A DNA stretch of 64,000 nt from Neptuniibacter sp. GTDB lineage: Bacteria > Pseudomonadota > Gammaproteobacteria > Pseudomonadales > Balneatricaceae. The DNA lies in assembly GCA_050789425.1 (NCBI GenBank), contig JAILXS010000003.1, positions 162,417-226,416 of the forward strand, in the 5' to 3' direction. This document shows positions 20,501 to 21,733 of this stretch, in pieces. Every line of letters starts with the position of its first letter. The first letter of the stretch is position 1. The notes under the pieces are model-generated. The model was not told the origin of the DNA. It worked only from the letters and a program-made list of their open reading frames with translations, and ran no database searches. Position numbers and translations under genes: made by a program.

Positions 20501-20579
20501 AATCTTGCTCCTCAATTTAGGACTTAGATTTTGAATCAGGGCATCATTGCCCAAATTTGTTTCAACTCACGTCACTAGG

Positions 20580-20595
20580 TGCGAAACTCGTACCA
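20580..20595 (-). promoter_or_regulatory. Sigma54 promoter of nifHDKTY (TGGTAC-GAGTT-TCGCA)
   Basis: Correct GG-N10-GC spacing, ending about 80 nt upstream of the nifH ATG. Confidence 0.8.
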
Positions 20596-20610
20596 ATTGA
20601 AAATAGTTTT

Positions 20611-20624
20611 TCAATCTATTGATA
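20611..20624 (-). promoter_or_regulatory. IHF-like site (TATCAATAGATTGA, WATCAANNNNTTR)
   Basis: Matches the IHF core and lies between the nifH promoter and the UASs. Confidence 0.45.
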
Positions 20625-20643
20625 ATAAAGGATTAATTTTAAT

Positions 20644-20659
20644 TGTTAGGAATGCTACA
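20644..20659. promoter_or_regulatory. NifA-type UAS (TGTTAGGAATGCTACA)
   Basis: Exact TGT-N10-ACA. Confidence 0.65.
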
Positions 20660-20691
20660 CAGGTGTTTTGCACGACAAATCGTCGGTTGTC

Positions 20692-20707
20692 TGTTGTAAT
20701 TCCAACA
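20692..20707. promoter_or_regulatory. NifA-type UAS (TGTTGTAATTCCAACA)
   Basis: Exact TGT-N10-ACA. It is ~100 bp from the nifH promoter and ~117 bp from the divergent plus-strand promoter. Confidence 0.7.
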
Positions 20708-20823
20708 AAAAATATAGGGTTTTGTCGTTGTTGTATCTTTTGCCGGAATAAACCACTCACTCATATCTGATTTAGCGACAAAATTACGACTGTATTTTGG
20801 TTAACTCATTGATTTTTAAGGCG

Positions 20824-20839
20824 TGGCCCGAGTATTGCA
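20824..20839 (+). promoter_or_regulatory. Sigma54 promoter divergent from nifH (TGGCCC-GAGTA-TTGCA)
   Basis: Strong consensus, ending 48 nt upstream of the ATG at 20888. Confidence 0.7.
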
Positions 20840-20887
20840 GAAAGCATTCTATCTATTAATGTATTAAGACCTGCGGGAAGCATTGTT

Positions 20888-21733
20888 ATGTACACAGAAT
20901 TGATTGAAGGCATTAAATCGGGAAAGATCGTGCCTTACTTGGGCCCTGGAGCACTGGCAGATGTCGTCAGTGTCAATGACAAATCCCCTATTCCAGCGGA
21001 TAGCGATAGTTTGATACTGGCTATGAATAATGGCCAGCCCATGGCGCCGCGTTTGATGTATGAGTTCCCGCGTGCAGCTATGAATCTGGAAAATAAAAAG
21101 GGTCGTAGTTTTATCACTCGTTTTATGAATGATACCTACCTGAATACAGAATGGACTGAAGGTAAGCTGTATAGCTGGCTGGCTGATCTAGATGCGCCAT
21201 ACGTTATTGATATAAACCGTGATACACAGATGATTACTCAGTACGCAAATCGTGAACATATTCTGATTCAGGGTTTATCAAGAGTAATGGGAACAGACTT
21301 CCGGTATAAGCTGTTTAAGTATAACGGTAAAAAGTATTCCGAGATCGAACTGAGTGAAGTGATGGCGGGTTTACCTATTCTGTTTAAACCCCATGGGTCT
21401 CCTGTGCCGGAAGCTAACTACATAGCATCAGATGCTGACTTTGTAGATTACATCACTGAACTGATGGGTGGTTTTGCCATTCCTGAATTCATGAAATTGT
21501 ATCGTCAAAATAAACAATACCTGTTTCTGGGAATGCGTTTTACGCGTGATACTCAGCGTATGGTTATGGGTGATATGGTTTATTCTGCTGATAAAAAGCA
21601 GACAGGTTGGGCCTTTATTGAAGAACCTACAGATAAAGAACGTCGTTTTCTTAAGCTTAAGAATGTGGAGATTATCGAGGAACCGTTGAGCAACTTCCTT
21701 GATGCTGCCTATGGGTTGGCTGAAACCGCTTGA
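20888..21733 (+). CDS. SIR2-like (SIR2_2-type) domain protein, 281 aa
   Basis: Motifs recalled from the SIR2_2 family are YLGPGA near the N-terminus, VIDINRD (cf. TNYD), LFKPHGS (cf. KLHGS) and YLFLGMRFTRD (cf. GYSxxD). The CDS itself is well supported. The family call needs a profile search. Confidence 0.6.
   Translation: MYTELIEGIKSGKIVPYLGPGALADVVSVNDKSPIPADSDSLILAMNNGQPMAPRLMYEFPRAAMNLENKKGRSFITRFMNDTYLNTEWTEGKLYSWLADLDAPYVIDINRDTQMITQYANREHILIQGLSRVMGTDFRYKLFKYNGKKYSEIELSEVMAGLPILFKPHGSPVPEANYIASDADFVDYITELMGGFAIPEFMKLYRQNKQYLFLGMRFTRDTQRMVMGDMVYSADKKQTGWAFIEEPTDKERRFLKLKNVEIIEEPLSNFLDAAYGLAETA

Follow-up and report, generated by a model that had tools for sequence, protein, structure and literature searches.

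PST1325 of Pseudomonas stutzeri A1501 was named pnfA by Yan et al. in 2010 (BMC Genomics 11:11; PMC2820453). The gene encodes a 31.7-kDa protein found in diazotrophs only, and is linked to nifHDK with an opposite direction of transcription. The spacer between nifH and pnfA contains a −24/−12 promoter and a TGT-N10-ACA site, and expression depends on both NifA and RpoN, as determined by quantitative reverse-transcription PCR in nifA and rpoN mutants. Transcription was induced 9.7-fold under fixation and dropped to 0.15 after ammonium shock. With a non-polar pnfA mutant, 23% of the nitrogenase activity was left at 0.5% O2. The mutant was also defective with nitrate as electron acceptor, and was indistinguishable from the wild type in strict anaerobiosis. 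The amount of nifH mRNA was unchanged, and the defect was complemented. A second subfamily was recognized at about 20% identity, and homologues were listed from Rhodocyclales and Ectothiorhodospiraceae (PMC2820453). The gene described here is a SIR2-like neighbour of nifH in a stretch of 64,000 nucleotides from Neptuniibacter sp. (contig JAILXS010000003.1, positions 162,417 to 226,416), hereafter termed the window. An earlier annotation made from the DNA letters, termed the sequence-only reading, had proposed that this gene is switched on together with nitrogenase and conceivably adds an NAD+-dependent layer to its control.

Other relatives have appeared in the literature since. PST_1325, which adjoins nifH (PST_1326), is now listed as a 'SIR2 family protein'. 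The same annotation is carried by Rcc03262 of Rhodobacter capsulatus, encoded in the operon nifB1-rcc03265-nifZT-rcc03262 and undetectable in a nifA1-A2 mutant. In Zymomonas mobilis, the protein ZMO1821 is more abundant under N2 fixation and is assumed to be a deacetylase; the Nif proteins of this organism are acetylated. According to a 2026 preprint, nifH has a SIR2_2 gene as its neighbour in 23 of 25 Thalassolituus genomes. A mutant of msi351 in Mesorhizobium loti, which we infer to be a SIR2-family gene, had a fully effective symbiosis. Recent papers take the PnfA-type protein for a lysine deacetylase, and no biochemical follow-up was found in the literature on pnfA and nitrogenase, of which the 2010 article and two reviews that cite it were retrieved. 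The sequence-only reading held that no SIR2-type component of nitrogenase had been described; this is contradicted by the publication of pnfA in 2010 and by the SIR2 annotations beside nif genes in several later papers.

The 281-residue open reading frame (ORF) divergent from nifH in the window is very probably an orthologue of pnfA, as judged from its position and size, its annotation, the spread of taxa and the division into subfamilies. It is a further member of the known PnfA family, whose membership of the nif regulon is already published. As with PnfA, the protein is of about 32 kDa (32.15 vs 31.7), is encoded divergently from nifHDK, is restricted to diazotrophs and is annotated as a SIR2-family protein. 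The common nifH spacer likewise contains a −24/−12 element and TGT-N10-ACA sites. The differences from PnfA of A1501 are the genus (Neptuniibacter-like, Oceanospirillaceae) and the presence of draT and draG in the window genome. The window protein is 100% identical to MGI1670196.1, a 'SIR2 family protein' of a Neptuniibacter sp. metagenome-assembled genome, and the nearest reference genomes belong to Amphritea, with 75–77% identity.

The PnfA family has few members and evolves slowly. A search of 1.84 billion cluster representatives at 50% identity gave only 241 matches with E ≤ 1e-3. The best 120 matches in a 90%-identity collection are 57–96% identical to the window protein and 278–328 residues long, and the mean column identity among 73 homologues is 63%. 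Conservation at about 60% identity extends across Gamma-, Beta-, Zeta- and some Alphaproteobacteria. The named homologues are from Rhodocyclales and Ectothiorhodospiraceae, and no Pseudomonas or Azotobacter sequence was present among the best 120 matches of two homologue searches. The family divides into two subfamilies, the second at about 20–30% identity, paralleling the division made in the 2010 PnfA paper.

Linkage to nif genes, which the sequence-only reading had made a point to be surveyed, was found in all 27 related loci examined, from five proteobacterial classes. They include 20 gammaproteobacterial loci and those of Mariprofundus, Cohaesibacter, Rhodocyclaceae, Acidihalobacter, Campylobacterota, Rhizobium etli and Paraburkholderia. 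In the first subfamily (≥ 40% identity), the divergent gene upstream is nifH in each of the 20 gammaproteobacterial loci examined, and also in Mariprofundus (Zetaproteobacteria) and Cohaesibacter (Alphaproteobacteria). The NifH of the window is 90–96% identical to that of 20 related loci. In the Rhodocyclaceae contig, nifKDH is followed by an oppositely oriented draT and then by the homologue, with draG near. In Acidihalobacter, the homologue abuts draG, nifQ, nifB and nifA. In a Campylobacterota contig, a homologue with 34% identity is flanked by an ORF of 71 residues and a clpX-like gene, opposite nifB and nifV. The homologues with 25–30% identity are at the end of the nifB-fdxN-nifZ-nifT operon of R. 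etli p42d and inside the nif cluster of Paraburkholderia pBN1. Diazotroph genera account for all 72 matching plasmid records, and 69 of these belong to Rhizobium, Mesorhizobium or Sinorhizobium.

The SIR2-like fold proposed in the sequence-only reading was confirmed. The protein contains the motifs YLGPGA (residue 17), INRD (109), KPHGS (167) and LGMRFTRD (214), and matches Pfam SIR2_2 (PF13289) with 32.9 bits for a cut-off of 24.5. The aligned part is restricted to residues 152–263, corresponding to profile positions 32–141. An AlphaFold2 model computed from the alignment of the 73 homologues has high confidence (mean predicted local distance difference test, pLDDT, 93.4; predicted template modelling score, pTM, 0.92). 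The best matches found by Foldseek in the PDB are all SIR2 NADases, namely KomC/HAM-SIR2, ThsA, DSR2 and AVAST5, with a probability of 1.0, E-values from 2.6e-10 to 1e-7, template modelling (TM) scores of 0.60–0.66 and 12–15% identity. The confident match of the model to these structures indicates that the predicted SIR2 fold is real. The relationship to sirtuins is visible by fold comparison only: a profile made from the family alignment retrieved no sirtuin and no meaningful match among PDB sequences, the canonical SIR2 family (PF02146) gave no match at E ≤ 10, and an NCBIfam scan of the protein gave nothing. As the protein has no cysteine, it can have neither a sirtuin zinc module nor an Fe-S site. 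The cysteine that is nearly invariant in the family (RRFC, position 255) is a leucine in the window protein, hence the absence of any cysteine. No informative domain fusion was found among the longer homologues examined. One of them (P0250) is a STAND-NTPase-SIR2 protein of the defence type, from the classical branch, and the other long ones have no extra Pfam domain or result from chimeric-looking gene calls.

The positions of the catalytic residues were examined in 272 full-length homologues with at least 40% identity. N110 of the window protein aligns with the TNYD motif, and H169 with the K-x-H-G motif, of the classical SIR2_2 proteins P0238 and P0259, which score 88 bits against PF13289. 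P0238 in turn aligns with the motifs 'TTNYD' and 'KMHG' of ThsA. The mapping of N110 and H169 onto the catalytic Asn and His positions can be considered secure at the level of aligned sequences. N110 and D112 are invariant (272/272), as are G19 and K167; R111 and G170 are each present in 271 homologues. The glycine loop G19/G21 is invariant in the close subfamily. Position 169 is occupied by Met in 191 sequences, Leu in 53, His in 14, Thr in 6, Ala in 3 and other residues in 5. Nine of the 14 sequences with His169 belong to the window protein's own 90% cluster, and in Amphritea, the nearest genus, the residue is Leu (codon CTG, vs CAT in the window). The window copy therefore displays a minority state, unlike most of the family. 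In the subfamily with 25–30% identity, Trp or Gly mostly takes the place of the Asn, and Leu, His, Phe and Tyr all occur at the position of the His. The sequence-only reading had pointed to both the Asn of INRD and the His of KPHGS as putative catalytic residues to be checked for conservation; the Asn is conserved among close homologues and lost, mostly to Trp, in the distant subfamily, whereas the His is not conserved.

Among the close homologues, invariance reaches 98% or more at 56 positions, many of which carry charged residues: E59, R62, E68, R73, D108, R132, R139 and D182 in the first half of the list, and D184, D187, E191, K203, R206, R220, D221 and R224 in the second. This pattern of invariant, often charged positions clearly points to a specific pocket or interface as a family feature. 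H124, at the beginning of the strand that follows the Asn-Arg-Asp motif, is shared by 268 of the 272 close homologues and could be of functional importance.

The catalytic histidine is needed by all deacylating sirtuins and by the ThsA and DSR2 NADases. Judging from the alignment, it is not a feature of the PnfA family. This family-wide loss was found in no paper and may be new. Since residue 169 is mostly Met or Leu, and since the distant subfamily lacks the Asn, a canonical deacylase or NADase mechanism appears unlikely, while the binding of an NAD-type ligand could be retained.

The spacer between nifH and the pnfA-like gene has a divergent promoter architecture of the NifA/σ54 type (Table 1). 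The −24/−12 element of nifH, the upstream activating sequences (UASs), the plus-strand σ54 element and the ORF motifs were all found where the sequence-only reading had placed them, and the site it had described as resembling that of the integration host factor (IHF) is an exact consensus. A second exact IHF consensus, absent from that reading, lies just upstream of the plus-strand −24 element. Alignment of the window spacer with those of four Amphritea genomes revealed conserved islands amid diverged DNA: the nifH promoter, UAS 2 with the adjoining block AGGGTTTTGTC, and the plus-strand −24/−12 element, which is kept as TGGCCTGAC(A/T)ATTGCA in five Amphritea loci. In Amphritea, the TGTC of the block AGGGTTTTGTC opens a third exact TGT-N10-ACA site, which is degenerate in the window (TGTCGTTGTTGTATCT). 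With transcription starts inferred from the −12 positions, UAS 1 would precede the nifH start by about 82 bp and the pnfA start by about 198 bp, and UAS 2 would be at about −130 from the former and −150 from the latter. UAS 2 is the best candidate for an enhancer common to both promoters.

Table 1. Genes and predicted regulatory elements of the nifH-pnfA region, with draG and draT, in window coordinates
Feature	Positions	Strand	Remarks
nifK	16381-17952	minus	
nifD	18060-19541	minus	
nifH (nitrogenase Fe protein; first gene of nifHDK)	19628-20500	minus	from ORF list and translation
Intergenic spacer from nifH to pnfA-like gene	20501-20887		387 bp
nifH σ54 −24/−12 element, TGGTACGAGTTTCGCA	20580-20595	minus	conserved in Amphritea
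Exact IHF consensus, TATCAATAGATTG	20612-20624	minus	between UASs and nifH promoter; partly conserved in Amphritea
NifA-type UAS 1, exact TGT-N10-ACA, TGTTAGGAATGCTACA	20644-20659		
NifA-type UAS 2, exact TGT-N10-ACA, TGTTGTAATTCCAACA	20692-20707		almost invariant in four Amphritea spacers
Block AGGGTTTTGTC	20716-20726		adjoins UAS 2; invariant between window and four Amphritea spacers
Second exact IHF consensus, AATCAATGAGTTA	20802-20814	minus	just upstream of plus-strand −24 element
σ54 −24/−12 element of pnfA-like gene, TGGCCCGAGTATTGCA	20824-20839	plus	48 nt before ATG
pnfA-like gene	20888-21733	plus	281 aa, 32.15 kDa, SIR2_2-fold protein, zero cysteines
Bidirectional intrinsic terminator	21749-21775		11-bp stem between A-run and T-run; common to pnfA-like and FMN-reductase genes
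FMN-reductase gene	21783-22310	minus	convergent with pnfA-like gene
draG	48811-49707	minus	Pfam
draT	49769-50647	plus	Pfam

The three types of motif are over-represented in the window, as expected of a nif island. There are 32 TGT-N10-ACA sites for 19.2 ± 4.2 expected, 17 matches to the σ54 pattern TGG-N8-TTGCW for 7.1 ± 2.5 expected, and 15 matches to the IHF consensus for 4.5 expected, or about three times as many. The elements of the spacer are considered more than chance occurrences because they form conserved footprints in the otherwise diverged Amphritea spacers, and because similar elements are found elsewhere: σ54-like elements, mostly with UASs, precede the start codon of the homologue by 46–56 nt in four further lineages, namely Mariprofundus, Cohaesibacter and Acidihalobacter (51–56 nt for the comparable elements of these three) and, more weakly, Rhodocyclaceae. 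The IHF 13-mer AATCAATGAGTTA occurs twice in the window, at 14190-14202 in addition to the copy in the spacer, and both copies are within about 10 nt upstream of a σ54 −24 element (14170-14185 on the minus strand for the additional one). The real start of nifH is the ATG at 20500; the TTG at 20554, which the mechanical ORF list gives instead, is an artefact of extending the ORF and falls within the nifH promoter region. As proposed from the letters, the pnfA-like ORF is predicted to be monocistronic, because it is followed by the terminator hairpin and then by the convergent FMN-reductase gene.

The sequence-only reading had also drawn attention to DraT and an ADP-ribosylglycohydrolase encoded on the same island. 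Both are indeed present, as identified with Pfam, but the association is not general. Genes draT or draG lie within 6 kb of the homologue in 2 of the 27 loci only. In the Rhodocyclaceae locus (L025, 4025-5846), the homologue follows draT on the same strand after a gap of 128 nt, and draG is two genes beyond. In Acidihalobacter aeolianus (L024, 5001-6791), the homologue is convergent with draG. P. stutzeri A1501 has pnfA and lacks both draT and draG. Systematic adjacency to draT/draG was rejected on this count. The support for a functional link is anecdotal, and is weakened further by the situation in A1501.

The protein can be compared with several groups of known proteins. The SIR2 proteins of alpha- and betaproteobacterial nif clusters (Rcc03262, ZMO1821, RHE_RS30545 of R. 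etli p42d and msi351) are likewise encoded inside nif clusters and are NifA-dependent or induced by N2 fixation. Homology with the R. etli and Paraburkholderia proteins extends over the full length, with 25–30% identity, while Rcc03262, ZMO1821 and msi351 are likened by description only. In contrast to the window gene, those of this separate subfamily are usually the last of a nifB-fdxN-nifZ-nifT operon and not divergent from nifH, and their products have Trp or Gly in place of the Asn and a variable residue at the His position. The defence SIR2 NADases share the SIR2_2 topology and the long excursion that separates the Asn motif from the strand of the His. They differ by the low identity given above, by the sensor or partner domain that the window protein lacks, by a His that is not conserved in the PnfA family, and by the nif-regulon context of the latter. 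Class-M sirtuins (SirTM) resemble the PnfA family in lacking the general-base His, keeping the Asn and being encoded with functional partners. However, SirTM has conserved Gln and Arg for the His (PMC4518038) where the PnfA family has Met or Leu, the window locus has no macrodomain, GcvH-L or LplA neighbour, and the window protein belongs to the SIR2_2 branch, not to SIR2. Canonical sirtuins such as CobB/Sir2 are set apart by their PF02146 domain, their Cys4 zinc module and their conserved His.

Three other explanations were weighed. According to the sequence-only reading, the protein would be a catalytically active SIR2 enzyme that consumes NAD+ as a deacylase, ADP-ribosyltransferase or NADase. 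It would act on NifH or other Nif proteins as a second layer of post-translational control, possibly in interplay with DraT/DraG. Its fold, with NADases as the closest structural matches, the invariant G19/G21, N110 and D112 of the close subfamily and the His169 of the window copy are all compatible with such an activity. So are the two loci in which pnfA follows draT or abuts draG, and the acetylation of Nif proteins in Z. mobilis. Class-M sirtuins, which have Gln for the catalytic His, are nevertheless ADP-ribosyltransferases and modify a partner encoded in the same operon (PMC4518038). However, about 90% of close homologues have Met or Leu at the His position, both hydrophobic, unlike the polar Gln of class M, and in the distant nif-linked subfamily Trp or Gly takes the place of the Asn itself. 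The lack of a zinc module and of any cysteine, the profile search of PDB sequences that retrieved no sirtuin, and the scarcity of neighbouring draT/draG, absent altogether from A1501, also argue against it. This explanation is judged unlikely, and the deacylase or NADase layer in particular suffers from the fact that the His is not conserved in the family.

A role as a maturation or assembly factor working with NifZ and NifT, for instance in the maturation or turnover of the P-cluster or the MoFe protein, would agree with the last or near-last position of the gene in the nifB-fdxN-nifZ-nifT operon of R. etli, R. capsulatus and Paraburkholderia, with the place of the Campylobacterota homologue next to a clpX-like gene and opposite nifB and nifV, and with a conservation equal to that of core Nif proteins. 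The wild-type activity of the P. stutzeri mutant in strict anaerobiosis argues against an assembly defect, the M. loti msi351 mutant is fully effective, and the protein has no metal-binding cysteine, so that such a role is considered very improbable. The third explanation is an accidental neighbour of nifH, either a gene of anti-phage defence or a spurious ORF, and the best structural matches, which are defence NADases, could be cited for it. But the gene is a single-domain ORF without a sensor partner, no PADLOC defence model matched it at E ≤ 10, and its relatives are few. The nif synteny of all loci in five classes and the conservation among the 73 homologues, together with the PADLOC result, effectively refute both the defence and the spurious-ORF explanations.

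The explanation that is retained, and is considered probable as a whole, is that the ORF is an orthologue of pnfA, of a Neptuniibacter type, and as such an accessory gene of the NifA/σ54 regulon specific to diazotrophs. It would encode a non-deacylase protein of the SIR2_2 fold. NifA bound to the TGT-N10-ACA sites between the two genes would activate the oppositely oriented promoters of nifH and pnfA, as is proposed here by extension of the regulation demonstrated in P. stutzeri. Each promoter would be served by a separate IHF-like bend site. The 32-kDa protein would thus be made together with nitrogenase, from a monocistronic transcript. It is predicted to adopt a SIR2_2-type Rossmann fold in which the glycine loop (G19, G21) and the Asn-Arg-Asp motif are kept. 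It would be neither a lysine deacylase nor an NADase of the ThsA/DSR2 type, given the family-wide replacement of the general-base His by Met or Leu and the missing zinc module. The degenerate SIR2 pocket may bind a ligand of the (di)nucleotide type, a Nif protein partner, or both. The protein would act after transcription and keep nitrogenase active during the respiration of oxygen or nitrate. In this scheme, NifA/RpoN-dependent expression is transferred from P. stutzeri and R. capsulatus, and the physiological role is transferred from the P. stutzeri mutant. The specific proposal of non-canonical binding or protection has close to an even chance of being correct.

Several observations weigh against this explanation. 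Orthology to PST1325 was deduced from synteny, size, annotation and taxon spread, and not from a direct alignment giving a sequence identity. The window copy itself has His169, and could be catalytically competent. The class-M sirtuins show, by analogy, that loss of the His need not end all NAD+ chemistry, although the replacement in the PnfA family is hydrophobic and one of its subfamilies has lost the Asn as well. The lack of a symbiotic phenotype of the msi351 mutant suggests that the importance of the family depends on the lineage or the condition. Finally, a strict σ54 scan of several Thalassolituus and Oceanobacter loci, where gene starts are approximate, detected no convincing plus-strand −24/−12 element.

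Beyond the terminator, the minus-strand region 21783-26378 contains accessory genes, among them those for the FMN reductase, a 2Fe-2S ferredoxin, a DUF3144 protein and BolA. It also encodes glutaredoxin-like, ankyrin-like and rhodanese-like proteins, named from their translations alone, and a protein of 543 residues that matches the Nitroreductase family at its C-terminus only. A comparable set (rhodanese-ankyrin, glutaredoxin and BolA) follows the pnfA homologue in Mariprofundus (L026). No RNA family reached the threshold in an Rfam scan of the whole window.

PnfA is among the few proteins of the nif regulon with a strong phenotype, the mutant being left with 23% of the activity, yet no known biochemistry. 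The family-wide loss of the catalytic His argues against the deacetylase assumption of recent papers, and directs attention to the binding of a ligand or partner and to a protection that depends on oxygen or respiration. This bears on the transfer of nitrogenase into aerobic hosts; the minimal Klebsiella gene set is not known to include pnfA. A further possibility, regarded as quite improbable, is that the SIR2 fold without its His still binds NAD+ or ADP-ribose and acts directly on the Fe protein, either by DraT-independent transfer or removal of ADP-ribose or by ligand-gated, shielding binding. If true, this would constitute a previously unrecognized post-translational control or protection of nitrogenase, and could account for the unexplained on/off switching of the enzyme in diazotrophs that lack draTG, such as P. 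stutzeri A1501.

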